Shown here: positions 5,669 to 26,087 of the stretch, piece by piece
Position numbering within the stretch: the stretch's first letter is position 1
Layout of the letters: each line of letters opens with the position of its first letter
Source: Patescibacteria group bacterium
GTDB lineage: Bacteria; Patescibacteriota; Doudnabacteria; UBA920
NCBI GenBank assembly: GCA_036726225.1
Contig: DAIMCS010000004.1
Coordinates: 21,829 to 85,828 of the forward strand
Length of the DNA: 64,000 nucleotides
Reading direction: 5' to 3'
Program-made: the position numbers and the translations under genes
Notes under the pieces: model-generated
Told to the model about the DNA's origin: nothing
The model's input: the letters and a program-made list of their open reading frames with translations, nothing else
Databases searched by the model: none

Positions 5669-6985
5669 ATGGACTTGCAAAATATAAAATATCGGCTTAC
5701 TAAAGCGAGAAAATTACTTTTCAAACTCTTTTTCTTCGCTCAATATTTCACTAAAAGACTGTTTTTCCAAATTAAGCGGCGCGCACCGCTTCTTAAGAAG
5801 CTCCATTTAGAAAGTTTTCCCGCCATCCATTTGAATAAAATGGATTGGATGGATTTTACACTCAAGTTCGCAGGCGAATTATTAGTATTGGTTTTGGCCC
5901 TAATGGTAGTGGGCTTAAACCTTTTTTATTTTGGAGGAGCCAAAGATTCTGTTTTTAAAGACTTTAGTTTGGCTTCGGTTTTCCTAAACCGCCACACCCA
6001 GCTAAACCCAAAGCTCTATGCCAAAAACAGCCAGGTGGTCACCGTGGTTTCCAGCGGCGGCCTGTTCCCCACTGCCTTGGCCGACGACTTTGCGGGCCTG
6101 GATAATTTAAACCTTGCTGCTTACAGCGCTGAATATGAAGATGAAAACTTATTGCTCGGCAACGAAAGCACTATTTTGGCCCCAAACCCGGACAGTGTCC
6201 AGAGCTTGATTGAAAAACAAATCCAGGTTTACCAAACCCAAAGCGGAGACACATTGGGCTCGGTGGCTCAAAAGTTCGGCATTAGCCAGCAAACCATTAT
6301 TTGGGCCAACAACCTGCCTTCCAACCTAATTAAGCCGGGCTGGTATTTGTTAGTTCTGCCGGTAGACGGTGTTGCGGTAAAAGCAGACAGCAACGACACC
6401 CTGCCCGATATTGCGGCCAAGTACAACCCTCAAAGGTACAACACGGACAAAAAAATTAGGGATGAAGCGGCCGAAAAACTGCTTGATAAAATTATTTCTT
6501 ATAACGCGCTGGAAAACGCCGAAGATATTGACGGCGGACAGGTTATTATAGTGCCCGGCGGGGCCATTACCCAGGCTCCGGCGGCCCCAAGACCGGTGAC
6601 ACAACCAAAGCCCACGGGCAGCGGAGCTTCCGACGTCGTAACCAGCATAGGCTCAGGCTATGACGGCATTGGTCACATTTTCCCCAAAGGTTACTGCACT
6701 TGGTATGTAGCTTCCCGCATGAAAATTACTTTTGGCGGCAACGCCAAAAACTGGTTAGCCAACGCCAAAAGCTCCGGTTATGTGGTTAAAGGGCCTTCTG
6801 AACCCTCGGCCAGGACAGCTGTAGTTACAACCGACGACAAACGCTTCGGCCACGTAGCCCTTGTAGAAGAGGTTACTGACACTGCCATCTTTGTCACGGA
6901 AATGAATTTTGTAGGCTTTAACAAAATTAGCCAACGCTGGATTCCGAGAAACAGCAAAACCATTCGGGGTTACATTTACCCATAA
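5669..6985 (+). CDS. Peptidoglycan hydrolase with two LysM domains and a C-terminal CHAP domain
   Basis: LysM-like segments (YQTQSGDTLGSVAQKFGIS, AVKADSNDTLPDIAAKYN). CHAP signature with Cys (GYCTWYVASR) and His (GHVALVEEV). N-terminal TM segment; the true start may be an internal Met. Confidence 0.75.
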   Translation: MDLQNIKYRLTKARKLLFKLFFFAQYFTKRLFFQIKRRAPLLKKLHLESFPAIHLNKMDWMDFTLKFAGELLVLVLALMVVGLNLFYFGGAKDSVFKDFSLASVFLNRHTQLNPKLYAKNSQVVTVVSSGGLFPTALADDFAGLDNLNLAAYSAEYEDENLLLGNESTILAPNPDSVQSLIEKQIQVYQTQSGDTLGSVAQKFGISQQTIIWANNLPSNLIKPGWYLLVLPVDGVAVKADSNDTLPDIAAKYNPQRYNTDKKIRDEAAEKLLDKIISYNALENAEDIDGGQVIIVPGGAITQAPAAPRPVTQPKPTGSGASDVVTSIGSGYDGIGHIFPKGYCTWYVASRMKITFGGNAKNWLANAKSSGYVVKGPSEPSARTAVVTTDDKRFGHVALVEEVTDTAIFVTEMNFVGFNKISQRWIPRNSKTIRGYIYP

Positions 6986-7010
6986 AGCATTTATAAATCA
7001 CCAAACGCAA

Positions 7011-9767: not shown

Positions 9768-12700
9768 CTATATTTTTATCATACCCAGCCATATTGGCTT
9801 ACCTGAAATCTCTGCCTGGATTTCAAAATCCACCTCTACTTCCAGGCTTTTGTTAATTTGGTTTACAAAAGTTTTCTTGCGGTCAAGCCCGGAAAGCAGT
9901 GAACTTTCCAAAGATTCATCCTGGGTGTTGTAATACAAGTCCACCAGCTCCCCTACTTTAAGGCCGCTCTTTTTGCGCAAATCCTGAACCTGGCGTTCCA
10001 GTTCCCTGGCCACACCTTCTTGTTTTAATTCAGGAGTCAAATTCAAATCCAAATAAAAATTCTTAACAAACTTAGTGCCCGGCAAAACCTCCACGCCTTC
10101 GGGCCGCAAATCTTTATCCAGCAAAGCATTGTCAAGCTTTTTAACATTGAGTTCGGCCAAAATTAGTTCAACTAATTCTGAACTGAGCAATGTTTTTTCG
10201 TCCTGCAATTCAAAAGCAAAATTCGCAAGCGGTTGGCGCACGGGTAGGGATTTTTGTTTGCGCACGGCCAACCCCAAAGACACAATCTCCCTTACAATTT
10301 CCATATTAGTAAGCAACTGCCCGTCAGCAGCGTCTAGGGCGGGCGTCCAGCTTTCTAAATGCACCGAATCTTTTCCGGTAAGGTCGCGGTAAATGAATTC
10401 AGACAAAAACGGCATAAACGGAGCAAGCAGCTTTGCTAGCTCGGAGAGCACAAAACTTAAAGTAACCAGGGAATTATGGCCGTCCTCCCCGCCCAGCTTA
10501 ATTCTGTCACGGCTTCTTCTGACATACCAGGTGGATAGGTCGTTTATAAAATCTATAATTTCTTTACCCGCCCTTACGGTGTTGTAGTTATCCAAATTCC
10601 CGGTTACAGATTTATGCAATTCAGATAACCTGGCCATAACCCATTTGTCTAAAACGTTTTCTGACTGCCCGACTTTATGGTATTCCAGCTTCCTGCGCTC
10701 ATACAGCCTTAAAAAACTCCAGCAATTGTAAATTAGCGCGTTAACTTTGCGGCTTATTTCAAGTACGCCTTTTTCGCTGAAATTTAAATCTTCCCCGGTA
10801 ACTACCGGGCTAGAAAGCAAATAAAAACGCAAAGCATCCGCGCCGTATTTTTCTATCACCAAATTCGGGTCAGGATAATTATTTTTGGACTTGGACATTT
10901 TACTTCCGTCTTCGGCCAGAATTGTTCCGGTGGTAACCACATTTTTAAACGGCGCGTGGCCAAATAAAATTGTGCTAATAACATGCATAACGTAAAACCA
11001 AGCCCGGGTTTGGGGGATGTATTCCACAACAAAGTCTGAAGGAAACCTTTTTTCAAACAGGTCCTGGTTTTCAAAAGGCGCGTGTAATTCGGCAAAAGGC
11101 ATACTGCCGCTTTCCACCCAGCAATCAACAACTTCAGGCACACGATTCATTGGCCCGCCGCATTTTTCGCATTTAAACCTTATTTTATCAATGTAAGGCT
11201 TATGGAGGTCAATTTGGGTTTGGGTATCGGGATAAACCTCGGAATAATTTAAAGATTTTTCCTTAAGCTCGTTAATAGAACCCACACAAACAACATTTCT
11301 GCATTCTTTATTTTCACATTTCCAAAACGGCAAAGGCGTGGCCCAGTAGCGGTTGCGGGAAATATTCCAGTCCGGCGCATTTTCTATGCCCTGTTTAAAC
11401 CTGCCGTCCTTTAAATGCTCCGGGTACCAATTTATAGCCTCATTATTTTTAAGCAAATCGCCCTTTATTTCCTGAATATTAATAAACCAGGCAGGCAGCG
11501 CGTTATAAAAAAGCGGCGTGCCGCAACGGTAGCAGTGCGGGTAGCTGTGCAAATAACTTTCAGTTTTATAAACCAGGTTATTTGCCTTTAGCTCTTTGAG
11601 AACAATTTTGTCAGCGTCTTTAAAAAATACGCCCCGCAAATGTTCTGAAATGTTAGGCTGATTTAAATACCTGCCTTGGTGGTCCAGCATATCTTCTTTA
11701 GGCAAATTTTTCTCTTTGGCTAACTGGTAGTCTTCTTCACCATATAAAGCTGCGTTGTGGACTATGCCGGTACCGTCAGTGGTGGTTACAAAATCGGCCA
11801 CATAAATTTTGTGAGCCTTCGATGAATCTCCACTTCCGCGTGACTGCGCGGCTGCAGTGTTTTCCGCGTGATTCCGCGATGCTACAACACCCGGGTACAA
11901 AGGTTCGTATAAAAGCCCTTCCAGCGCAGCAGCCGGAAACTCTGTAACCATTTCGTATTCCCCTTCTATGACGGATAAACGGTCTTTAGCAAGAATGTAC
12001 CTCTCTTTTGTTTTTCCGCGTCTGTCCGCCGAAGCTTCAGCGAAGGCGGATGATTCCGCGCCTGTCCCGACGCTTGCGGTACGGGACTCCGATACTAACG
12101 TCGGAGCAGCAGCTTCCGCGTGATTCCGCGCCTCTTGCTCTATCATCACATAAGTTATTTCCGGTCCAATGTTGAGCGATGTATTTCCCGGCAAAGTCCA
12201 GGGTGTAGTTGTCCAGGCCAGCGCATAGGTGTTGTCGTTGGTTAAGTCGTTAATTATTCTTTGTCCTTTAGGCAGCTTGAATTTTGCGTACACCGATTCT
12301 TCCGTAACTTCGCGGTAGGAATTGTCCATAGCGACTTCAAAATTGGAAATTGGCGTTTCACAGCGTGAGCAATACAAAAGCACCTTACGGTCTTCGTAAA
12401 TTAAACCTTTATTCCAAATTTGCTTAAGCGCCCACCAGACACTTTCCATATAGGAAGTGTCCATAGTTTTGTAGGAATTATCAAAATCCACCCAGCGGGC
12501 AACCCGCTTAATGGTTTTACCCCACTCTTCTGCGTACCTTAAAACATTTTCCCGGCACTCCTGGTTAAACTTTTCTACACCAATTTCTTCAATTTGTTTT
12601 TTTCCGGAAATTTTTAGTTTTTGCTCCACAATATTTTCAATCGGCAAGCCGTGGCAGTCCCAACCCCAACGCCTGCGAACAAACCTGCCTTTCATGGTTT

Positions 12701-15223: not shown

Positions 15224-15636
15224 TCATTTTATCATCTTAACATGGAACAAAAGCAAAATAATTACTTCGAGCAAATAAAAAACAAAATGGATTTATATGT
15301 CCATTTTGTATACCAATTAACTAAAAAATTTCCTAAAGAAGAGCTATACGGATGTACTTCTCAGCTCCGTCGCTCAACCCTTTCAGTTGTTTTAAACTTC
15401 ATTGAAGGCTTTGCAAGAAGAAAAATTGCAGTAAAAAGAAACTTCTGGGAAACTTCCTATGGCTCTTTACAAGAATCCAAATATTTGTTGAATTTTTGCT
15501 TTGTTGAAAAATATATTCAACAAGATGACTATAAAAAGGCGGCCGGAATGGCGGAAGAAATCGGAGCAATGCTTTGGCGTGCCTTGGAGCCTTTGTCTGA
15601 ATGATAAAATGTTAAAATGATACGATGATAAAATGA
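15224..15636. mobile_element. Small cassette: four-helix-bundle protein gene flanked by 13-16 bp terminal inverted repeats (TCATTTTATCATC)
   Basis: Left TCATTTTATCATCTTA at 15224-15239; the reverse complement of the right end (15621-15636) is TCATTTTATCATCGTA. An extra ATGATAAAATG copy overlaps the stop codon at 15601. Confidence 0.45.
15242..15604 (+). CDS. Four-helix-bundle protein (TIGR02436-like, the '23S rRNA intervening-sequence protein' family)
   Basis: About 120 aa with a family-typical core: LYGCTSQLRRSTLSVVLNFIEGFAR. Confidence 0.75.
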   Translation: MEQKQNNYFEQIKNKMDLYVHFVYQLTKKFPKEELYGCTSQLRRSTLSVVLNFIEGFARRKIAVKRNFWETSYGSLQESKYLLNFCFVEKYIQQDDYKKAAGMAEEIGAMLWRALEPLSE

Positions 15637-15854
15637 AACCGAGCACCAAAGAAAAACTATATATTTTAGTAATAATTTTTCTAATTGGCATTAGTGCCCA
15701 GTTCTATTACACTTATAGTTACGAGCCAAATAATAGAATACAAGTTTACTATAACCAGGAGCGGGCGCTAAATACGGAACTCATAAGTCTAATTCGTGAC
15801 GCGGATGAATTTGTATATTTCGGGGTTTACACTTTTACGAGAGCGTATTCGTAA
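15633..15854 (+). pseudogene. N-terminal fragment of a PLD/Nuc-family (HKD) protein, truncated by the GC-rich island
   Basis: TM/signal segment, then LIRDADEFVYFGVYTFT typical of the start of a Nuc-like PLD domain. It stops right where GC content jumps, and the matching C-terminal fragment lies at 22374-22526. Confidence 0.6.
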
Positions 15855-15948
15855 TTCCAGAATGCTTGCCTTTAGCCTAGTAGCAGCGTTGCCTGCTCCT
15901 CCTGTAAATGCGAGTGAATCGGTGAAGCGGCTTTGGCGCGAATCGACT

Positions 15949-16272
15949 TCAATGGTATGAGATTACGTATAAGACTCGGCTTCGACCCAGATCATTCACC
16001 AGCGTGAGATATCGGTGGCCTTTGCGAAACGCCTTTTCATCGACTCCAATGTGCGTCACCGGTTCCGCTTTCCGTCGCTTCAGCCCACGTTTGACCGCGC
16101 GATCCATGATGCCGTGAATTTCATCCCAACTCAGATGAAGCTGTTCAGCAACCGCCTTCTGACTGGCCACCTTCAACCAATCGATCGCCAACCGTTCAAA
16201 CAGTGCGGTGAATCGGCTACCCGGCTCCGCCCAGGAGAGCTTCACCACTTTAACCCCGTGCTCGACCGGCAA
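15949..16272 (-). pseudogene. ISL3-family transposase fragment (HTH region and start of the DDE domain)
   Basis: HIGVDEKAFRKGHRYLTLVNDL matches the start of DDE_Tnp_ISL3; TTG-initiated with a TGA two codons upstream; lacks the catalytic core and C-terminus. Confidence 0.65.
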
Positions 16273-16390
16273 ACTTCAGCGAGCTGAGGATCAGTTTTCT
16301 GTGGGGAGGGAGTGGAAGGCTCTGTTTTGCCGGAAGTTTCGTAGATTGGTTTCAGGAAAGATTGAGGGCTCACCAGTGTGGAGGAAAACA

Positions 16391-16813
16391 CTACGAATTT
16401 CGTCGCTTTATCCCATATTTCTCATACCAACCATATGTCTTGAGCCACTGATACAACGCATCTCGACTAATTCCAAGCAACTGCGACGCCTCTCCAACCT
16501 CTTTGGTTACTTCAAAAACACGGGTAATTAGCCATTGTTTTAAGAGTTTGTCATGCTCTCTAAATTCTAACTTGCCCAACCGAATGTCCTCACCTGTAGG
16601 AGCCTGTATTAAAAAGTCACGACTGCAGCTCTCGACTTGTTCACGAATCTTCATCGCGTGTCTATGGAGCCCATCATGCTCGACGACCCCCTTGAGTTGC
16701 TCCCAAATCTGAAGCTGATTCTTAGCGCTGAGGATGTCCTGAGTCTCCACGTAGGTTCGCGCCAAGTATAAGGAGAGTACGGCCCTCAATTTTGCATCCG
16801 GCATTCGAGGCAT
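16391..16813 (-). CDS. Hypothetical protein with a C-terminal Fis-type helix-turn-helix
   Basis: ASQLLGISRDALYQWLKTYG resembles the HTH_8/Fis DNA-binding motif; no AAA+ motif in the flanking ORFs. Confidence 0.35.
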   Translation of the reverse strand: MPRMPDAKLRAVLSLYLARTYVETQDILSAKNQLQIWEQLKGVVEHDGLHRHAMKIREQVESCSRDFLIQAPTGEDIRLGKLEFREHDKLLKQWLITRVFEVTKEVGEASQLLGISRDALYQWLKTYGWYEKYGIKRRNS

Positions 16814-17917
16814 AAACGAATCTTGCGGTGAAGGACCCTGCTTTCACTCCGCTGTGATGTACTTGACTCGCGATGAAGGTTGCAAAAAACAGCCTCACCA
16901 TCTCGCACGCACAATCGTGCCCTTTCAGTTTGCCCGAGATAGTCATATACCTGCGACAGGAGACAGCGCAATTCTACTTGCGGTATTAGAGCCCCGTCCC
17001 AATGGCCGTCAGCGACAGAACGAGGTATAACCCACCCAAAAAGCGAATTGGCAAGGTGCGTCGTTTCTTTTACAGCCAACCGACCGTGATGCCAGGCATT
17101 CGCCAACTTCTCGTAGGACGACTTGTGATCCTCCAGCCGGTCAGTGGTTTCTTCAGGCCATTTGACGAATCGATTTTCTTCTTTCACATGGAATCCGTTG
17201 TAGGAGCCACCGACATTTCACATCAGTTTAATCAATCACTATTGAAAACCCTTGATTTCACGATGTCAAGAAAACCTAGAGTTTGTCATTTTTGTCGACA
17301 AATCCCTTGAAGCTTTTGAGATGGCATTTGCGATAGTGTTAAGTGTTTCGGGATTGGTTGACCAGAGGCTTCGAGTCCAGCGTTCCTTGAACTTCCTCTG
17401 TCTTTGTAAAGTCCCCCGACGTTTATGGTGCTTTGGCTCGTGTTCTGGCCAGGGCAACATGTTATGAGCTTTCTGGCAGCCTGAAGCGGATGCGGTGTCG
17501 GAAAGCTTAACGTATTTCGCAATTCTTAAGAACAGGCTTTGTCCTTCGCTGGTAAGGAATTCTGTTTGTAATGGATTCGAGACAAAGACTTGACTAGCTC
17601 GTGATTTGCTATTTGCTGAATTGGTCCTTCTGTTGCTGGCAGCGTCGCGCCTTGTAGTGTGTCTGAAACTTGACAGACGTGGACTTAATGCTGTACATTG
17701 AGCGCAAGGTATTGGGATTAATTCATTTGCAAGATACTGCCTATAGTGTTCTTGTCTCTGAGGTAAGAGATTTGGTTCTTGTCGCAGTTCGGGATCTTCG
17801 GCGCTCTCAGGTCTTGCTTCGCCGGCCATGCTCAAACAGGCCACCGTTCCCCAACCCTTCCTTTAGCCCGTACCATTTCCGTTTGACGTACCCAGAAGCA
17901 GAAGGAGGAATCTTGCA

Positions 17918-18427
17918 ATGTTAGGGCGAACTGTGATCTTTACGGCCGCGGGTTTGTTGCTGTTAGGCGGTTTGACAACCACTGCCGGCTTATTAGCCAC
18001 AGCGGTTGCTGTTGGCCAGCAGCGACCCGCATGGCCGCCACCATTACTGCCAGGTTATTCGTATGCACAACCGAGACATCCTGGACATCGGTGGGCGATG
18101 GTTAAATATCGTACACCCGTTAAGTTTCAGGACGCAGCTATAGAGATCTTACTCGACTCGTCTGTTTCCACGCCTGCCCTCCGCAAGGTGGAAATTCGGG
18201 ATGTAGGCAACTCCGTGGTGGCGACGAAAGAGTGGAGCGCTACTACCGTCGAGGGAACTGTTCAAAGTCAGGCTTTCTATCAGTATCGGATCAGGGATAT
18301 CTTCTCAAGTGTTCCGCCACCGAGCGCAGCTGAAACTCGAACTCGAACTTATGTAGTTCGCATATCGGCTTTCGATCGCCGCGAGGTCATAGAAACGATG
18401 GAGTTTCGGCTGGAACTCGTCCCATAG
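17918..18427 (+). CDS. Hypothetical secreted protein (island cargo)
   Basis: Hydrophobic N-terminal signal/TM region; GC-rich codon usage; no motif recognised. Confidence 0.35.
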   Translation: MLGRTVIFTAAGLLLLGGLTTTAGLLATAVAVGQQRPAWPPPLLPGYSYAQPRHPGHRWAMVKYRTPVKFQDAAIEILLDSSVSTPALRKVEIRDVGNSVVATKEWSATTVEGTVQSQAFYQYRIRDIFSSVPPPSAAETRTRTYVVRISAFDRREVIETMEFRLELVP

Positions 18428-18540
18428 GTCGGTTAAAGAACGTTCTTTGGTAGAACGTTCTTTTTTTGGTTCTCAGTTTCCCAAGAGACCACCCTCCTTC
18501 AGCAGCAACAAGCAAGTACAGGTTTAAGAAAATATGGAGC

Positions 18541-19275
18541 ATGGAGCGGAAATTGCGTCTGCTGATTCTAAATGTAATTGTTTTACTTAGCATACTGCTT
18601 GCGAGTTTTTCTCACCGCACGGCAGAAACGCAAACACCGCAAGCTCAGAACAGCCCAGCTTCTACGCGGCCCTATTGCTATTCAATTTTCGGTAGAAGAC
18701 CGATTCCAATGGTTACGTACCAACTAATATTGTCTTCCAAGGTTGCTATGCCTAATGCCTGGACTACTGCAGTATCAAATGCAGCGACCGAATGGAATAT
18801 GGTTGGGACGGCGTTTACGCTAACAGGGGGGAATACGATTATTCTCGCGACGGACGATACTGTGATTCGCGTACCCGGCGGCAACGTTTTGATCCAAAGG
18901 GGAAATGCAATACAAGCCACTATCGCCGGTACAACTATTACGATTTCCGTCGCGCTCACAGATGAAGAATTACGTTCTACCCAAATTGGTGCGAGCGTTG
19001 CAACAACTTCAACCGAATTCAACGAACTTACTCGTGCTGTTTTCAGCAGAGAGATAGTTGTGAACGGACGGGCAAACTGGATACTAACCGGCGCTATACC
19101 CACAAACGGGTTCGACCTTCAAGGCGTGGTTGCGCATGAGTTTGGACATATCGCCGGTTTGGCAAATGTGTCATGTCCTGGGCCCGTTATGCAGGAAACC
19201 ATAGAACCTGGGCAACCACGCAGACTCACGGATGACGATAGACAAGCTCTCAGGCAAATTTATCCATCTAAGTGA
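18541..19275 (+). CDS. Secreted zinc metalloprotease-like protein (HEXXH, metzincin/snapalysin-like)
   Basis: Signal peptide after MERKLRLLILNVIVLLSILLASF; motif VVAHEFGHIAGLAN. The track ORF starts at 18466, but the internal Met at 18541 fits the signal peptide better. Confidence 0.55.
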   Translation: MERKLRLLILNVIVLLSILLASFSHRTAETQTPQAQNSPASTRPYCYSIFGRRPIPMVTYQLILSSKVAMPNAWTTAVSNAATEWNMVGTAFTLTGGNTIILATDDTVIRVPGGNVLIQRGNAIQATIAGTTITISVALTDEELRSTQIGASVATTSTEFNELTRAVFSREIVVNGRANWILTGAIPTNGFDLQGVVAHEFGHIAGLANVSCPGPVMQETIEPGQPRRLTDDDRQALRQIYPSK

Positions 19276-19370
19276 GAGAGACAATTCCCTAATCGAGAAA
19301 ACCCTTCTTGATTCATCGAAGCGTGTTCAATCGTCGCCCCGAAAAAAGGCTCTTCCGGGTTTTTAGTGGG

Positions 19371-19763
19371 TTACGGAGCCAGATCCAGCCCGCCACAGTG
19401 GAAGTAAATCGCATTGATGAAGTTCCTCTGATTGCGGAATCCGCGTGCCGTGTACTTCACCCACTGGATCTTGGCGTTCAAGGATTCGCTGGCCGCATTG
19501 GTGATCCGATGTTTGATAAACGTCAGAATATTTTCGAGACGACGTTTCAGCATGCGACCGGCTTCGATCATTGGCTTCAAGCGGCAGCGTGAAGCCCAGC
19601 TATACCAGCGGTCGAAGAATGACCGTGCCGCTCCGGTATAAACATACGTGAACAGGGTCGTGTAGTACTTGCGGAAGCAGTGGATGGCTGTTGGCCACCG
19701 GTTTGGGCTGCCATTCAGCAGAACGAAGCGTTCGGTAAATCCCTTATCGAAGATGTCGCTCAT
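19371..19763 (-). pseudogene. ISL3-family transposase C-terminal fragment
   Basis: WYSWASRCRLKPM, ITNAASESLNAKIQWVKYTARGFRNQRNFINAIYFHCGGL match the DDE_Tnp_ISL3 C-terminal region. It lies upstream on the strand of the N-terminal fragment, so the two pieces are not contiguous. Confidence 0.65.
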
Positions 19764-19908
19764 GGCAACTTTTTCGGAAGACAGGCTAATTCGTTGCCGT
19801 CGACTGAGGTTGAACTTGCGGATCTATACATTTGGGTGGTCCGGCGATATCCATATAGCGTCGAGCTCTGTCAGCAGTAGCCGGTCCCGTTCCTGCAAGA
19901 CTAATCCA

Positions 19909-21315
19909 TCATTGCCAGTCATCCAGCGCCTCCTCGGTGGACAGCGCCAAGGCGGCCCTGACGTTGATATCGTGCTCGATCTCTGAGCGGGGCATGGCCC
20001 ATCGTCCACGGCATCGCGAAAGCAAATCTCCAGAGGAGGGCAATGCCTTGATCTCCGGCACTTGAATTTGCGACCAGCGATAGGAGCCGCTTTTGACAAT
20101 CATTTGACGGTGAGGCAGGTGGCGGAGCAGTTCAGATAGCTGCTTTCCGCCACCCAGGGCTGATGCCATCTTGCTGGCATCATCGCTGGAAAGCTGAAAC
20201 AGAACGTGCGTGCCGACAGCAAGGATTGCGGCCTTCATCTGCGGTGGATATTGCTCCAAGAATTGGTTGGCCGAGACGACTGAAATGCCGAACTTCCTGG
20301 CTTCGGACAACAGTGTGTCGATGCCGGCGTCGAAGGTCACGAGATTCTGGATTTCGTCGCAATAGAGCGTAAAAACCCTCCTCGATTTTCTTCGAAAAAT
20401 CGCATGCTTGAGCTTGGCAAGAAATAGGCTGCCCAAGGTCGACGCCTGTTCGCCCAAACGGCCTTTGTCCAGGTTGAGAATGATCCAGTAGCCGTTATCC
20501 ATCGCATCGAGTAGAGAAAAACTCGAGTGCTCCTGACCCAAGATGTGGCGAAAGTGCGGGTCCGCGGTAAACGCCGTCGTCTTATTCAACACCGCCTCCC
20601 TAAATGCAGCCTGCATCCCCTCGCTGATTCGGTCATATCGCGTCTCGAAATATCGGCGGACTTCAGGATTGCGAACATGCTCCAGGCATGCTGTCCGAAA
20701 GGCGGAATGAGTCAGCAGCGGTGCGATCTCAAGGAACGTGAGACGGCTTTCCGACAAGACATACAGTGCGTTCCTGAGCAGCTCTTCTGTCCTGGCCCCC
20801 AACGCGTCCAGATGCCAGCGTTGTTTCAGTATCTGTGCGAACTCCGAAATCTGGACGAAATTGGAATCGGCTGCTTTGGGCTGTTCGAGGACATTGAGAC
20901 CGACGGAGTAGCGGGGATCACCCGGTTCGATGACGATCAGCTTTTGAGTTAGGTCCTCATTACGCGATCGTTCCCTTTGCGCGATGGCCGCGAGCAGGAA
21001 GCTTTGAGCGTCGCCATGGAGATCGAAGAAGACAAAACCGCGATTGGCCTCGATGTCCTGCAAAACAAAATGTTTGAGCAGAGTCGACTTGCCCGTGCCC
21101 GTCTTGCCCAACACAGCGATGTGCTCCGGCCGACGAGCGTGCGGTAACAACGACATTGAAGGATGGAGCGGCAGTATGCTGGCCCGTCCCAGTTTGGATC
21201 GTCTCCGCGACGATGCGACAAAAGGAAGTTTTGATGCCGTACTGCTCAATGATGTAGACCGCCTAGCCCGCGATGTTGCGCATTTGGGAATAATCAAGCG
21301 GGGTTTCGAGAGCAA
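19909..21315 (-). CDS. TraD/TraG/VirD4-like conjugative coupling-type P-loop ATPase (soluble form lacking an N-terminal TM domain)
   Basis: Walker A LGKTGTGKST; Walker B-like FVFFDLHGDA; C-terminal LYCDEIQNL...ARKFGISVVSANQ typical of the T4SS DNA-transfer (TraD/HerA-like) ATPase domain. Confidence 0.55.
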   Translation of the reverse strand: MLSKPRLIIPKCATSRARRSTSLSSTASKLPFVASSRRRSKLGRASILPLHPSMSLLPHARRPEHIAVLGKTGTGKSTLLKHFVLQDIEANRGFVFFDLHGDAQSFLLAAIAQRERSRNEDLTQKLIVIEPGDPRYSVGLNVLEQPKAADSNFVQISEFAQILKQRWHLDALGARTEELLRNALYVLSESRLTFLEIAPLLTHSAFRTACLEHVRNPEVRRYFETRYDRISEGMQAAFREAVLNKTTAFTADPHFRHILGQEHSSFSLLDAMDNGYWIILNLDKGRLGEQASTLGSLFLAKLKHAIFRRKSRRVFTLYCDEIQNLVTFDAGIDTLLSEARKFGISVVSANQFLEQYPPQMKAAILAVGTHVLFQLSSDDASKMASALGGGKQLSELLRHLPHRQMIVKSGSYRWSQIQVPEIKALPSSGDLLSRCRGRWAMPRSEIEHDINVRAALALSTEEALDDWQ

Positions 21316-22374
21316 ACACGTTCAGTTGGTCTTTCGCAAATTGCCTTCAGACAACAGTCCCACGTACAACCTGATGGTCAATATCCTCGGCAGTTTCGCT
21401 GAGTTCGAGCGGGAACAAATTCTTGATCGAATGCGCCGAGGCAAACGCCACAAGGTGGAGGTCCGAAAACAATATGTCGGCTGCATCGCTCCTTACGGCT
21501 ATCGATACCAAGTCGGTAGTGCAACGGTCGGCCGCGAAGCTCAGATCGAGATCATCTCCAAGGAAGCCGAAGCCGTAAAGAAGATTTACACTTGGGCATC
21601 GGCGGGCATTTCAATGAAAAGAATTGCACGCAACCTCGACGAATTGGGTGTGCCAACACGAACTGGCAGGCCCGCCTGGGCTGCCAGCATCGTTCATCGG
21701 ATCCTCCATAACGAAACGTATGCTGGTGTCTGGTCCTACTGCAAACTGGAGGCATGCGAACCGATCCGTCCAAAAATCCGCACTACATATAGACGCATTT
21801 CGCGCTCGAGTCGTCGGCGGATGCGCTGGAATCGATTATGTGGACGTCCCTACGGGAGGCTCTTTTGAACCCGAAACACTTGAAGCAGCGAATTCTCAGG
21901 GCGCGAAACCGGATTGCAAAGGAAGGCGCTGCGGCCACTAAGACCCAAACTTCCGTTGAAAAGCTCGACGAAGACACTCGTCTGATCCAGCGCTATCGCT
22001 CCGGTGTCATCACAGCGCAAGAATTAACAAATGGTCTCGAGGCTATAAAAGCTCGTCGTCAGGAGCATCGAGCCGATCATTCCAATAAGCAGAGTCGAAA
22101 TCACCCATGGCCCGGGATTACAAAGATGTGTCGTCGCTTGGCAAAACGACTGGAAGATCCCGCGCCAGCATCGCGCCAACAAATATTCCGGGACTTAATC
22201 GACGAAGCTACGGTCTTTGTCGATGAGGTGAGAATCCGCGGCAAGATTACCGCTGAGTCTCTGAGCGGTAGTACGGTCGTTAACCAAATGGCAGGAACAC
22301 GCGAAAATCTGATGGCGATTCAATCTGCGAATGAATTGTCTTGTGAGATTGCATCATCTCAATCAAGGTTTTAG
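21176..22374 (+). pseudogene. Large serine recombinase, 5'-truncated and frameshifted
   Basis: Frame A (to 21868) has the resolvase-domain C-terminal half (LDRLRDD, DRLARDVAHLGIIKRGFESKHVQLVF, ILGSFAEFEREQILDRMRRGKR) and the recombinase domain. Frame B (21838-22374) has the coiled-coil tail. The catalytic-Ser N-terminus is missing and overlaps the TraD-like gene. Confidence 0.6.
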
Positions 22375-22526
22375 TGACTGAAAAGGCTTATGCTTCGGGT
22401 TCGTTTAACTGGACAGCGGCGGCAACCAATTTGAATGACGAAGTGCTGGAAATAGGTTATGATGAAGCCGTGAGGCAAAAATACCAAAATATTTTGGAAG
22501 AAATATTTAAAAAATATAATAACTAA
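22374..22526 (+). pseudogene. C-terminal fragment of the same PLD/Nuc-family gene (carries the GSxNxT part of the HKD motif)
   Basis: Translation TEKAYASGSFNWTAAATNLNDEVLEIGYDEAVRQKYQNILEEIFKKYNN begins exactly at the island's right edge. Confidence 0.6.
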
Positions 22527-22536
22527 CCTAAACAAT

Positions 22537-22797
22537 ATGACGAATGATTTTTTGAAACAAGATATTTTCTTTTTCGTTACAACTATTGCGGTAATAATCC
22601 TCACCCTGCTTGTGTCAATTTTAATAATTTATTTTATTAAAATTTCCAGGGACGTAAAATATCTGCTGACCAAGGCAAGGACTGGCGCAGATATAATAGC
22701 AGACGATATGTCCGACCTTCGCGATAATATTAAAGCCGAAGGTTTTAAGCTTAAATACTTGTTCAGGTTTTTGAGCCGCTTAAAGAAAAAAAGATAG
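22537..22797 (+). CDS. Small membrane protein (DUF948-like)
   Basis: Single N-terminal TM helix then a charged helical tail, 86 aa; often paired with YtxH-like genes. Confidence 0.45.
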   Translation: MTNDFLKQDIFFFVTTIAVIILTLLVSILIIYFIKISRDVKYLLTKARTGADIIADDMSDLRDNIKAEGFKLKYLFRFLSRLKKKR

Positions 22798-23179: not shown

Positions 23180-23196
23180 GGGGATCTTTTTTTGCT
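23165..23196. terminator. Bidirectional rho-independent terminator
   Basis: aaaaaaagatcccc-ttaa-ggggatctttttttg: 9-bp perfect stem, A-run before and T-run after, between convergent genes. Confidence 0.75.
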
Positions 23197-26087
23197 TATT
23201 CCGCTTTTAGCATAAAGTGCGTTGGCACAACTTTGCCGTTATGTTTAAATTCTCCAAAAATATGGTACGCACCCGGGCCGGGGAAAGTTAATCGGGACTC
23301 AATATTGGGGCCGAATTTTTCCGGCAAAAATAAATGTTGGGTATGAATGCCGGTGCCTAATATTTTATTAAGGCCGGATTTCGGCAACCAGCCGTGAGTG
23401 TGCATAAACTTTGACAAATCTTCTTTTATAATACTTATATGCATTGGCGAATTTAAATAGGCCTGCAAATCTGTAACCGGATTGTCGGCTTTTTTTATAT
23501 TGTATTGTAAAATAATTTCTTCTCCGGATTTTATTTTGGCCGGTGATGTTTTTAAAGCTACCTGGTAACTATTGAAATTTTTTGATAACGAAAAATCTTT
23601 TTGTAAATTTGCTTGCAGGCTTAATCCGCCAACATTAACAAAAAAGCTTTCGACAAAAAGTTTAGACCTCACGGTAAAATCTACGGCAACTAAATATTTG
23701 CCGGCTTTTGGAAAAACATAACTAATGGGAAATTTTCCCTGCTTAATCATTTCTTCGCTAACAGGATTAAGGTCTTCCACATGCAGGTGGCTAAATACGC
23801 TAAAATCCTCAGAAACAACAACAGCGTGCAATATTCGGTCATGATCCAAATTCAGCTCCCCTACCGGCTGACCGGTAAAGTCCCTAATGTTGAAAACTAA
23901 AATAGCAGGTTTGCCGGCTTCAAACTCTTTAGGCTCTATGCTTAAACCTGCTTGAGCCTGAACCGGGCGGATAAAATATAAAAATTCCCGTATGTCAGCA
24001 AAATGGTATTGACCGAGCCCATTGCCAACCATACAGCCCGGCACGGCAATATCTGAGGTTGCCTGTCCGGCCCTTTGGGGCACATTTTCGTGCCAAACAA
24101 AAAAAGTTTGGTTGGCATTTTTTTCGCATAAAATTTGAAAATCGCTTTTAAACAAAGTAACATTGTGTCTGCCCCCCAAGAAAGACAGAACAAACAGACC
24201 AAAAACCAAAGGCACGCTCCACGCTCCCCTGTCGTACAATAAGCTTATAGGTGTTGGGTTACTGGTAATAGTTTGTGGTTGCCCAGATAATTCGTTTAAC
24301 CGATCACCATGGCGATACAAAAAAACAGCTGTCAGTAAAATTAAAAGCGCTATAAAAATATTTATCATCTCAAAACGGTCAAAGCTCCTGTCTTGAGAAT
24401 GCGCTTTGGCAAAATCTATTTCCCCAGGATAATTTACCGCAAAAGAAGCCACTGCATCGTAAGCGCTCGGTCTTTGTGCGGTAATATCAATTTTCCATAC
24501 CCCCTGCGGGCTTAGCAGCTCTTGGTCAAAAACAAAACCACCTAAAAAACGCTGCTCAATAGGAACTATTACCGGCCCAATGTTTTTTTCAGAGTTAGTT
24601 AAAGTTATGGTTAATTTGTGAATATCGGGACTTGTCTTACTATTAGCAGACGTCAAAGTAACTAAAAATTTGCTTAGCTCATAAGGATGCTGAGTTAAAC
24701 TAATATTAATCCCCTGGCTTTGTTGCTGTTTTAAAAAACTATAATGGGGTGCAATGGGCGGCGTTGTGATAATTAAATTACCGGTAACTAAAAGTATAAA
24801 AATACCCATGCCCGCCTCGAAACTCAAGATTATTGGCAGCCAGGAAGCAATAACTTTTTTCTTTAGCCAAAGCTGGCTTAATATACGGGCGGCAAACAAA
24901 GCGGCCGCGAAAATACTTAAAATAATAAATTTTTCTCCCCACGAAGTGCTCAAAACGTTACCAAAACTTTTTAAATGCAGCCAAATAACATAAACCCCGG
25001 TCACCCCTGAAACTGCCAGGGAAATGGCAACAATTTTGGAAAAACTCGTAAGGATAAAAAGCGAAATTTTGGCATTTTTTAATTTGCCAACAACCGGCGA
25101 CAGCAAAATTAACAAAGCCAAAACTCCGCCAATCCATAAATCTTTAAAGTACAAATGGACAAAATTAATAAAAATTGAAAGCTCGGGATAAAAAGCAGAC
25201 GCCGCCGCGTGGCTTACTCTGGCCCTGGCGAGCGCAACAAAAGCTAAAAGTAAAAATAAAAATACTTCCGTTTTGCTAATTTTTTCATTAAGCAAAATTT
25301 TCTTTCGGGCTGACCAAAAAACTAAAAAGAAAGTTATAATGGCAAGCATCCGGTAAAAAGTATACTTGGCCGAAACCGTGGAAAAAAATAACCAAAAAGT
25401 ATGGCTAATAGTTGATTGCTGCAGCTCTGCAAGCTGATTAGTTTTTAAAATAAAGTAAACTATTCCCCCGCCCAGGACTAAAAGCGTTGCTGCAACCAAA
25501 GCAAAGCTTAATCTTTTTTGTAATAATCCTTCTGTAAGCTCAAGCTCTGCGCTAAAATATTTCCTTCTGGCCGGACGCCAAATAAAGACAATTACTAACA
25601 AAACTCCCAAAGCCAAAGCTTCACCTAAAAGCTCAATGCCAACTGTTAAGCCTTCCGGAACAGAAGAAATATGCCTAACTTCTACGCTTTGAGAAACACT
25701 AGCTGCATTTACCGATGTCTGCCCAACGGAAAAAACAAAAGCGCCTTTGGTAAAATGGCCATCATCTGCGGAAACTACCTGCCAGGAAACAGCGTAGCTG
25801 CCTTCACCGGCGTTTTTTAAACCGACAACAAACAACCTGTTGTCTTTTGAGTCAACGTGTGCGTCGTTATTGTCTGCCCTGCTGCCGTCCGGGGCAAAAA
25901 CAAAAATACTACCGGCTTTTGCTTCCAGCCTTTCGCTAAAACGGATTCTAACTTCAACGGGCGCTTTTAAAACCACCGAAGAAGCTTCGGGTTGGTAGGA
26001 AAAAGGCGTAGCATGGGCAAAAGCCCGGCCAAACGGAAACAAACAAAGCAAAACAAAAAAAGCAGCTTTAAAAAATTTAGCGCTCAT
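23196..26087 (-). CDS. Copper transport/resistance protein, CopC-CopD fusion (YcnJ-like) with a large C-terminal extracytoplasmic extension
   Basis: Signal peptide ending FAHA so the mature N-terminus is His. CopC-like domain (ASSVVLKAPVEVRIRFSERLEAKAGSIFVF...YAVSWQVVSADDGHFTKGAFVFSV). Then about 10 TM helices (CopD-like) and a ~400-aa C-terminal region with His motifs (SHLHVED, MHTHGW). Confidence 0.75.
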   Translation of the reverse strand: MSAKFFKAAFFVLLCLFPFGRAFAHATPFSYQPEASSVVLKAPVEVRIRFSERLEAKAGSIFVFAPDGSRADNNDAHVDSKDNRLFVVGLKNAGEGSYAVSWQVVSADDGHFTKGAFVFSVGQTSVNAASVSQSVEVRHISSVPEGLTVGIELLGEALALGVLLVIVFIWRPARRKYFSAELELTEGLLQKRLSFALVAATLLVLGGGIVYFILKTNQLAELQQSTISHTFWLFFSTVSAKYTFYRMLAIITFFLVFWSARKKILLNEKISKTEVFLFLLLAFVALARARVSHAAASAFYPELSIFINFVHLYFKDLWIGGVLALLILLSPVVGKLKNAKISLFILTSFSKIVAISLAVSGVTGVYVIWLHLKSFGNVLSTSWGEKFIILSIFAAALFAARILSQLWLKKKVIASWLPIILSFEAGMGIFILLVTGNLIITTPPIAPHYSFLKQQQSQGINISLTQHPYELSKFLVTLTSANSKTSPDIHKLTITLTNSEKNIGPVIVPIEQRFLGGFVFDQELLSPQGVWKIDITAQRPSAYDAVASFAVNYPGEIDFAKAHSQDRSFDRFEMINIFIALLILLTAVFLYRHGDRLNELSGQPQTITSNPTPISLLYDRGAWSVPLVFGLFVLSFLGGRHNVTLFKSDFQILCEKNANQTFFVWHENVPQRAGQATSDIAVPGCMVGNGLGQYHFADIREFLYFIRPVQAQAGLSIEPKEFEAGKPAILVFNIRDFTGQPVGELNLDHDRILHAVVVSEDFSVFSHLHVEDLNPVSEEMIKQGKFPISYVFPKAGKYLVAVDFTVRSKLFVESFFVNVGGLSLQANLQKDFSLSKNFNSYQVALKTSPAKIKSGEEIILQYNIKKADNPVTDLQAYLNSPMHISIIKEDLSKFMHTHGWLPKSGLNKILGTGIHTQHLFLPEKFGPNIESRLTFPGPGAYHIFGEFKHNGKVVPTHFMLKAE

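Follow-up and report, generated by a model that had tools for sequence, protein, structure and literature searches.

A decaying foreign island of probable Terriglobia origin interrupts a PLDc_2 gene in a soil Patescibacterium

Analysis of a 64-kb stretch of a Patescibacteria genome (Doudnabacteria, UBA920; GenBank assembly GCA_036726225.1, contig DAIMCS010000004.1, positions 21,829 to 85,828 of the forward strand) revealed a foreign island of about 6.5 kb lying inside a gene for a membrane-anchored, Nuc-like protein of the PLDc_2 family (the PLD gene below). We consider it probable that the island is the remnant of a mobile element from Terriglobia, accompanied by debris of ISL3 insertion sequences (IS), which entered as a circle, was joined illegitimately to the PLD gene and was then worn down by deletions. 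The whole 64-kb stretch is referred to as the window and positions are numbered along it; L-numbers denote fetched loci that were compared with the window. Patescibacteria, the Candidate Phyla Radiation (CPR), have tiny genomes, and most of them are thought to live attached to other cells; the partners of the soil lineages are not known.

A foreign island within a PLDc_2 gene

An earlier note on this DNA had put the island at 55 to 60% GC by eye. The computed profile bears out the contrast at a lower level, with 51.3% GC at 15855-22373, the most GC-rich 6.5-kb stretch within the window, against 41.7% elsewhere in it. A GC fraction of 0.55 to 0.56 is attained in only some of the 400-nucleotide (nt) windows. 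The tetranucleotide distance to the window background rises from about 0.18 to 0.4-0.53 across the island, so that both of the sliding profiles proposed as a check shift at the same place, and no other stretch of the window deviates more. On either side of the island, a piece of the host gene is preserved:

15633-15845, plus strand: N-terminal fragment of the host PLDc_2 gene, running through the conserved ...VYTFTR(A) (protein alignment A1 and DNA alignment)
22365-22526, plus strand: C-terminal fragment of the host PLDc_2 gene, beginning (K)VLVTEKAYASGSFNWT... and keeping the GSxN part of the HKD motif (Pfam, alignment A1 and DNA alignment)

When joined, the two fragments retrieve 264 proteins of about 180 amino acids (aa), all of them PLDc_2 (PF13091), and each fragment aligns to the same proteins, in agreement with the earlier description of them as halves of one HKD-family gene. 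The N-terminal fragment corresponds to residues 1 to ~71 of the ~180-aa intact homologs (alignment A1), and its frame meets a stop at 15852-15854; host DNA homology stops at 15841 in comparison with L011 and at 15845 in comparison with L014, and host sequence resumes at ~22365 in the DNA alignment with intact homologs. By itself, the open reading frame (ORF) of the N-terminal fragment (15633-15854) has no Pfam match, and the ORF of the C-terminal fragment (22374-22526) matches the final 40 positions of the PLDc_2 profile (92-131). Aligning the fragments to an intact homolog, a step that had been called for, places the missing segment at 52 to 59 codons (~150-175 nt of the host gene) rather than the 60 to 70 residues first estimated; as claimed, the loss includes the catalytic H-x-K. 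The complete motif HxK(x)4D(x)6GSxN is accordingly absent, with GSFNWT kept in the C-terminal fragment and H-x-K gone. Judged from these alignments, the fragments are a pseudogene of a true PLDc_2 family member that was a single gene at the ancestral locus.

Relatives L011 to L015 carry an intact PLD gene between SmpB and an 86/87-aa gene, within the order IleRS-ArgRS-SmpB-PLD-...-86/87-aa-121/127-aa genes that is also found at the window locus, and this syntenic intact gene amounts to an empty site. The PLD homologs with a source name are labelled Patescibacteria group or Doudnabacteria; together with the conserved synteny, they identify the recipient as a Patescibacterium, as far as homology can tell, the window itself having yielded no direct marker of taxonomy. 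One close PLD homolog comes from a metagenome-assembled genome labelled Limnocylindria; it lies on a 5-kb contig with Patescibacteria-type synteny that was probably mis-binned.

Both junctions recur widely. Long contigs from JGI 3300012173, JGI 3300027513 and ENA ERZ27267613 are 99.995 to 100% identical to the window over the island plus 10 kb on either side, and shorter contigs of other samples (JGI, ENA and Logan) each cross one junction. In total, the left junction is crossed in L001 to L010 and the right junction in L001 to L005 and L024, from different samples and assemblers and always with 100% identity; the 120-aa gene that adjoins the island on the left is present on 23 contigs. Since both junctions are identical in independent assemblies and relatives have an intact gene at the syntenic site, it is very unlikely that chimeric assembly or mis-binning has placed a GC-rich segment alien to this genome here, and we give this idea next to no weight. 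Its appeal would lie in the metagenomic source and in the frequent ending of assemblies at the ISL3-derived pieces (16177-16186, 19470 and 19838), yet beyond the island the same gene resumes with the synteny of its relatives, and a second, shorter allele (described below) also crosses both junctions. The island is foreign and real.

A split recombinase gene and other element remnants

Four parts of the island can be assigned to the element from which it seems to derive:

15838-15960, plus strand: detached C-terminal tail of a serine recombinase, the last ~40 codons and stop, RERIRNSRMLAFSLVAALPAPPVNASESVKRLWRESTSMV (tail profile and tblastn)
21158-22347, plus strand: large serine recombinase body (tblastn to the L027 and L028 recombinases; Pfam Resolvase, from profile position 40, and Recombinase)
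19909-21162, minus strand: remnant of a DUF87/TrwB-like P-loop ATPase without its first ~45 residues, Walker A intact (Pfam TrwB_AAD_bind and DUF87)
19863-19922, minus strand: first 20 codons of Replic_Relax, a putative relaxase, the remainder deleted (tblastn; 70% identity to residues 1-20 of the L027 Replic_Relax)

The recombinase body and its tail lie in the same orientation at opposite ends of the island. A hidden Markov model (HMM) built from the tails of 19 homologs, with the window excluded, was searched against all six frames of the 64-kb window and matched a single place, the ORF at 15793-15957 (E=3.9e-8; next best, 0.35). This left-edge ORF reads RERIRNSRMLAFSLVAALPAPPVNAS..., it matches residues 495-525 of the L027 recombinase by tblastn, and a hand count gives about 68% identity to the tail of the homolog P0247. 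In homologs, the motif (consensus RE..N....FEL.A.LP) stands just before the stop codon (...PPSRERIHNRRMAEFELVAALPPPASNS in P0247 and ...TMVEFELIAPLPAPAPN in L028). Body and tail join without a gap relative to L027 (ANELS-PSRDA-IRN in L027 and ANELS-CERER-IRN in the island), giving a reconstructed circle junction of ...TCTTGTGAG|CGAGAGCGTATT... We read these alignments as showing one recombinase gene split across the island ends, with nothing lost or duplicated at the break. The tail motif is attached to the body in 19 of the 120 listed homologs, all of them full-length, and also in L027, L028 and other close homologs, one on a 99-kb chromosomal-looking contig; members of the family do not, therefore, normally have an attachment site inside the gene. 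The remnants are also colinear with a circular map of the parent element, in the order tail, a deleted part now occupied by ISL3 and cargo, relaxase stub, ATPase remnant, a second deleted part and recombinase body. Taken together, the split gene, the gapless join and this colinearity are most simply explained by entry as one unit-length circle opened inside the 3' end of the recombinase gene.

The recombinase had been described as truncated and frameshifted; it is both, and more damaged than was apparent. Positions 21158-21790 correspond to residues 53-263 of the L028 protein, the first ~52 residues with the catalytic Ser being deleted. A frameshift at ~21790-21811 follows, together with a deletion of ~78-97 residues that include the Zn-ribbon (L028 residues ~283-360), and 21811-22347 encodes the coiled-coil/C-terminal region, ending ...SANELSCE. 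The 120 listed homologs are all 509 to 680 aa long, and nearly all have the Zn_ribbon_recom domain. By comparison, the island copy has no catalytic-Ser domain (...YxRVSxxxQ...), a partial Recombinase domain, no Zn-ribbon, a broken frame and its tail at the other end of the island.

The largest cargo gene (19909-21315, minus strand) has 60 to 76% identity to the members of a tight family of ~457-aa proteins, and the remnant can be aligned with residues 46-456 of the proteins from L027 and L029. It had been taken for a soluble TraD/VirD4-like ATPase. The ATPase assignment holds for a protein that lacks its first ~45 residues; against NCBIfam TraD models it scores 20 to 31 bits, with cut-offs of 366 to 647. 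Pfam TrwB_AAD_bind matches at 35.9 bits and DUF87/HerA models also match; the protein fails the cut-offs for type IV coupling proteins (TraD/VirD4/TrwB) and would best be called a DUF87/TrwB-like P-loop ATPase. The Replic_Relax stub lies directly downstream of the ATPase gene, at the position it has in parent elements, and the ~2.4 kb that separate recombinase and ATPase in the parents is gone, the truncated genes abutting at ~21158-21162. All mobility genes are truncated, and not one of them can be functional.

Donor lineage of the element

In the nearest ATPase relatives (L027, L028 and L029), the parent module begins with a large serine recombinase (532-584 aa), which lies on the other strand; HTH95, p86, p152, a Dam-type methyltransferase, the ATPase, Replic_Relax, p96, a tyrosine integrase and p70 follow, often with DUF2958. 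The serine recombinase occurs in a subset of parent loci only (L027, L028 and L090), which are the relatives nearest to the window. Parent loci have 51 to 61% GC and carry a serine and/or tyrosine integrase, Replic_Relax and the ATPase in conserved order; the window keeps no intact member of this set. No type IV secretion system genes were noted within ~8 kb of the parent module.

A one-genome-per-species scan returned ATPase matches of at least 51% identity exclusively from Terriglobia (Acidobacteriaceae, Bryobacteraceae, Terracidiphilus and Granulicella, complete chromosomes among them), except for one 1.5-kb contig binned as Nevskia; in the same scan, Patescibacteria gave matches of only 26 to 33% identity. 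The few recombinase and ATPase matches with a source name are from Acidobacteria. These relatives therefore point to Terriglobia (Acidobacteriota) as the donor lineage of the ATPase/recombinase part, and not to the Actinobacteria that had been named as an example of a high-GC source. In a plasmid collection, the ATPase finds at most 30% identity and the island protease barely matches; the island is therefore no known plasmid module. Exact copies of island proteins were found solely in this locus or in short pieces of it.

Patescibacteria have distant DUF87/TrwB-like homologs of their own at the same 26 to 33% identity (in Dojkabacteria, Saccharibacteria and others; L046, L056, L059, L062-L069 and L087). 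Because of these, coupling-type ATPases as such are not foreign to the phylum; only the island copy is.

Junctions and mode of entry

The two borders of the island can be placed to within a few bases:

15838-15845: left junction overlap CGAGAGCG, readable as A CGA GAG CG (T-R-A) in the host frame and as CGA GAG CGt (R-E-R) in the element frame
22348-22364: right junction segment ATTGCATCATCTCAATC, ~14-17 nt, between the end of recombinase homology at 22347 and clear PLD homology from 22365

At the left junction, host R70 is at least 90% conserved and the tail begins with R-E-R, in agreement with P0247, L027 and L029; both frames need at least 4 nt of the overlap, and we infer a microhomology of 4 to 8 nt. 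At the right junction, ATTGCATCATCTCAATC may have come from the host, as a degenerate remnant of the region of the lost I-M-H-x-K motif, or it may be filler; extending the host gene to 22348, with ATC ATC TCA ATC AAG taken as a degenerate I-M-H-I-K, is possible and not demonstrable. The island ends showed no inverted or direct terminal repeats and no target duplication, with short matches at chance level only. As for an RNA gene as target, the only RNA genes of the window are two tRNAs at 48.2-48.6 kb, Rfam adding no others; tRNA-Pro genes lie near 2 of 12 scanned Terriglobia parent loci, which is not informative.

Known routes for the illegitimate or microhomology-mediated integration of foreign DNA include microhomology-mediated end joining, template switching and homology-facilitated illegitimate recombination after DNA uptake. 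In the sequence of events that we favor, the source would have been an integrative, probably mobilisable, Terriglobia-type element with ISL3 debris and 3 kb of orphan cargo. Its circle would have been opened within the element's serine recombinase gene, in the 3' part of the coding sequence, and one unit-length copy would have entered the chromosome of a soil Patescibacterium, leaving the last ~40 recombinase codons at the left edge and the rest at the right edge, reading outward. Because the left overlap is 4 to 8 nt, ~150-175 nt of host DNA was lost, and there are neither duplications nor repeats, the joining to the PLD gene was most likely illegitimate, by microhomology-assisted end joining or template switching and not by the recombinases of the element. 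The PLD gene was destroyed, with loss of the catalytic H-x-K. Colinear deletions would have followed, perhaps partly at an earlier time in the donor. They would have taken away the N-termini of recombinase and ATPase along with the ~2.4 kb that separated the two genes, the Zn-ribbon of the recombinase, the relaxase gene from codon 20 on with all that lay beyond, and the outer parts of both ISL3 copies.

Alternatively, a serine or tyrosine recombinase may have acted at a site inside the 3' end of the recombinase gene and at a pseudo-attB (core CGAGAGCG) in the PLD gene, with later deletion of the right core and ~150-170 nt of PLD sequence. Such site-specific integration would account for an insert of exactly one unit length with a lossless break, and an 8-nt shared core fits the range of recombinase core sites. 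It would also sit well with L029, which has an independent discontinuity near the same point of the gene, beside two tyrosine integrases. Conservative recombination spares host DNA, however, yet host DNA was lost here, and the second copy of the core is missing exactly from its boundary, which requires an additional and oddly placed deletion. The close homologs with attached tails, including the one on the 99-kb contig, count against it as well, and no dyad symmetry is visible by eye around the reconstructed site. On balance, we regard this alternative as unlikely.

L029 (141-2478), the closest ATPase relative, carries the tail motif (SREGRHNSTTIEFELTADLP) without a recombinase body, beside two tyrosine integrase genes at the place of the serine recombinase. 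Its detached tail may reflect swapping of integrase modules or a recombination hot spot at the boundary of body and tail. Because the tails in the window and in L029 are detached at about the same codon, a non-random break can also be proposed, in which the Terriglobia family has a site in the 3' coding end of the recombinase gene and the element actively integrated into the Patescibacteria chromosome; we hold this to be rather unlikely. If true, it would mean intimate and repeated DNA traffic between Terriglobia and Patescibacteria, consistent with a pairing of episymbiont and host.

ISL3 fragments and inner cargo

Between the recombinase tail and the relaxase stub, the island consists of ISL3 pieces and the cargo that they enclose:

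15965-16264, minus strand: ISL3-N', internal transposase gene fragment with HTH_Tnp_ISL3 and the first ~30 DDE residues (Pfam PF13542, E=3e-16)
19343-19659, minus strand: ISL3-C', 3' part of the transposase gene with an IS terminus at ~19343-19370; DDE profile positions 148-240 (Pfam PF01610, E=1e-22)
16265-19342: inner cargo, 3.08 kb between the ISL3 pieces, 48.8% GC (Pfam and NCBIfam)
16391-17187, minus strand: gene with a weak C-terminal Fis-type HTH, probably frameshifted (Pfam/NCBIfam)
17918-18427, plus strand: 169-aa ORF of the inner cargo
18553-19275, plus strand (ORF extending back to 18466): secreted M10-like HEXXH metalloprotease (Pfam)

Compared with an intact ISL3 relative in L096, ISL3-N' (16264 to 15965) equals IS positions 612-911 at 88.7% nt identity and has neither the Zn-finger N-terminus nor an IS end, and ISL3-C' (19659 to 19346) equals positions 1293-1606 at 88.5%; similarity to several IS relatives stops at 19343-19348. 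The pieces had been called parts of a split ISL3 transposase. That they carry the ISL3 HTH and DDE regions is correct; a single gene split by the cargo was rejected, since the order on the coding (minus) strand is C', 3.08 kb of cargo, N', and the pieces are therefore remnants of two directly oriented copies around the cargo. As two internal fragments of a ~1.6-kb relative with at most one terminus, no inverted repeat pair and no 8-bp duplication, they do not make up a complete ISL3, and direct fragments around 3.08 kb with both outer ends deleted do not make up a composite transposon, although the ancestral ISL3-cargo-ISL3 state may have been composite-like. The broader proposal of a decayed element of integrative/conjugative type from a higher-GC donor, which together with IS debris took the place of the middle of a PLD-family gene, held up in all the tests made here.

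Independent assemblies (Logan, MEGAHIT and JGI) terminate at 16177-16186, 16350, 19470 and 19838, all within or bordering ISL3-derived sequence. Breaks at these pieces are expected because related ISL3 copies evidently co-occur in the same samples (best, 88.6% nt; L096-L098, from the same soil-study series).

The Fis-HTH protein and the secreted HEXXH protease-like protein noticed earlier were recovered by Pfam, the former as a weak Fis/HTH match and the latter as an M10-type protease. This protease is an orphan. In a search of 1.84 billion cluster representatives, no cluster but its own gave a good match, and the next match (E=1.4e-10) is confined to the catalytic end. PHROGs and NCBIfam gave nothing useful for the inner cargo, and neither it nor the ISL3 pieces matched any of the fetched Terriglobia loci. 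We cannot assign the inner cargo to the Terriglobia donor of the ATPase/recombinase part, or name its source.

These fragments also bear on the idea that the element integrated normally at its natural ends, or by ISL3 composite transposition, into the PLD gene, and that deletions or rearrangements then reshaped both borders. Deletions clearly happen at this locus, elements with large serine recombinases often insert into genes, and the cargo is flanked by ISL3 pieces. Deletions and inversions cannot, however, place the recombinase tail at the far end in direct orientation, nor would they leave the end of the body and the start of the tail exactly complementary. For transposition in particular, both ISL3 copies are without outer ends, there is no 8-bp duplication, and the pieces are internal and not at the borders. 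We consider this history quite improbable.

A shorter allele and ongoing decay

The island is polymorphic, a long form coexisting with an allele that is shorter by 3.9 kb:

17005-20929: segment of 3925 bp absent from a second allele, found in L004 (ENA ERZ27267734) and L005 (JGI 3300011434) by blastn of the loci against the window

The two sides of the short-allele deletion share 3 nt (ATG) at the join, and its flank carries a few single-nucleotide polymorphisms. The ATPase is colinear with its homologs across position 20930, and this continuity marks the long form as the ancestral one, from which the short form arose by deletion. Piece by piece, a living population is losing the island, and decay is ongoing.

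A related question is whether an already decayed fragment was captured in one step, its deletions having occurred in the donor or in free DNA, with uptake and illegitimate recombination and only the 3.9-kb loss taking place in the recipient. The Patescibacterium depends on imported DNA and nucleotides, which is the premise of such a capture, and the junction evidence is the same as for the favored course. Long open frames persist (the ATPase at ~400 aa, the protease and the 169-aa ORF), which speaks against long residence. On the other side, no donor with the deleted arrangement was found, the identical island proteins are all in this genome context, and a circle without replication or integration functions is unlikely to persist in a donor. 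We judge capture of a decayed fragment improbable, and retain deletion chiefly after entry as the favored course.

Neighboring genes

A 120-aa four-helix-bundle protein (23S_rRNA_IVP/bAvd-like) is encoded at 15242-15604 (plus strand), between smpB and the PLD fragment. It scores 80 bits with TIGR02436 and just 34 bits, against a cut-off of 80, with the diversity-generating retroelement Avd model. The relatives with an intact PLD gene (L011-L015) have no gene at this position, which makes it a second, older difference at the same locus. An extra gene of 155-159 aa without a Pfam match lies between the PLD and 86/87-aa genes in relatives (L011:6583-7062 and L014:5740-6207); the window is without it, the C-terminal PLD fragment being followed directly by the 86-aa gene at 22537. 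To the right of the locus, the window encodes a multi-pass membrane protein of 963 aa that carries a CopC domain at its N-terminus (23196-26087, minus strand) and is unusually large for a reduced genome, where L011 and L014 carry other genes.

The IleRS gene beside the locus is a single 1022-aa gene in L011 (1-2150). In L012 and L013 (both 1-2150) it is in three pieces (~189 aa; 483-495 aa, without a Pfam match; ~307-313 aa), which looks like an insertion (intein, intron or mobile ORF) into ileS in some strains of a related Patescibacterium. Local GC peaks of 0.50 to 0.52 occur in the window at 5669-6985 (about 6001-7000, within a LysM-CHAP protein) and at 11800-12400 (IleRS). As they are far shorter than the island and lie inside genes conserved in relatives, they are probably compositional traits of those genes and not transfers.

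Discussion

We found nothing directly relevant in the literature on transfer between CPR bacteria and Acidobacteria or on serine integrases with attP inside the gene. Remnants of integrative and conjugative or mobilizable elements in decayed genomic islands share with this island a foreign composition, insertion into a chromosomal gene, genes for integrase, coupling-type ATPase and relaxase, IS debris and progressive deletion. It differs from them in having no functional mobility gene, no att sites or repeats and a Patescibacterium as recipient, and its source is a family of Terriglobia elements for which we found no name. With the illegitimate integration of foreign or circular DNA it shares a microhomology of a few nt, a small target deletion, the absence of duplication and independence from the ends of the element, although here the mechanism is deduced from the junctions alone.

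The tyrosine integrases of the Myxococcus phage Mx8 (intP) and of SSV1-type Sulfolobus elements have attP inside their own gene as part of a conservative, normal pathway, and there, too, insertion divides the gene between the two borders, leaving the 3' end at one and the body at the other. In the island, by contrast, the gene encodes a serine recombinase whose relatives normally keep the tail on the body, the insertion cost host DNA, and the gene is dead in other respects as well; the evidence favors an accidental break over one of the Mx8/SSV1 type. The Bacillus subtilis skin (SpoIVCA) and SPbeta (SprA) elements and Listeria A118 in comK also place an element with a large serine recombinase inside a coding gene, and their precise excision restores that gene. 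Here, with ~55 codons gone and a recombinase that is without its catalytic Ser and Zn-ribbon and therefore dead, restoration of the PLD gene is impossible.

Several points weigh against entry as a circle followed by illegitimate joining. How far the microhomology extends (4 to 8 nt) depends on the reconstruction, and a site-specific cut would yield just such an insert, of exactly one unit length and with nothing lost or gained at the break; the likewise detached tail of L029 raises the possibility that the break point is a preferred recombination site. The course of decay requires at least five deletions, which may predate the transfer; in that event, decay in the recipient would be shown for the 3.9-kb variant only. 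Finally, the true donor and the intact parent are unsampled (the best ATPase match is 76% at the aa level, the best ISL3 match is 88.6% at the nt level and the protease is an orphan), so that both the original circle and the sequence of the host prior to insertion had to be reconstructed.

The earlier reading of a horizontal-transfer scar in a low-GC, reduced genome is borne out by the cross-phylum affinity to Terriglobia and by the recurrence of the junctions in independent assemblies. Beyond it, the present analysis adds the Terriglobia donor, a finer anatomy, likely entry as a unit-length circle and continuing deletion. The island represents a known kind of event that is unusually well resolved, and not a novel type of system: both junctions can be placed to a few bases, one unit-length circle is the likely form of entry, and the two alleles give a population snapshot of deletion. 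The gene that was destroyed encodes a conserved membrane-anchored Nuc/PLD-like protein near smpB, and at least one lineage can evidently do without it. As to the partners of these cells, the affinity to Terriglobia gives a hint, and no more than that; the idea that the donor was the host of an episymbiont is speculation. The island documents in concrete form how a CPR bacterium acquired DNA from another phylum, and it illustrates both non-homologous insertion as a route of entry and the strong deletion bias that keeps such genomes small.

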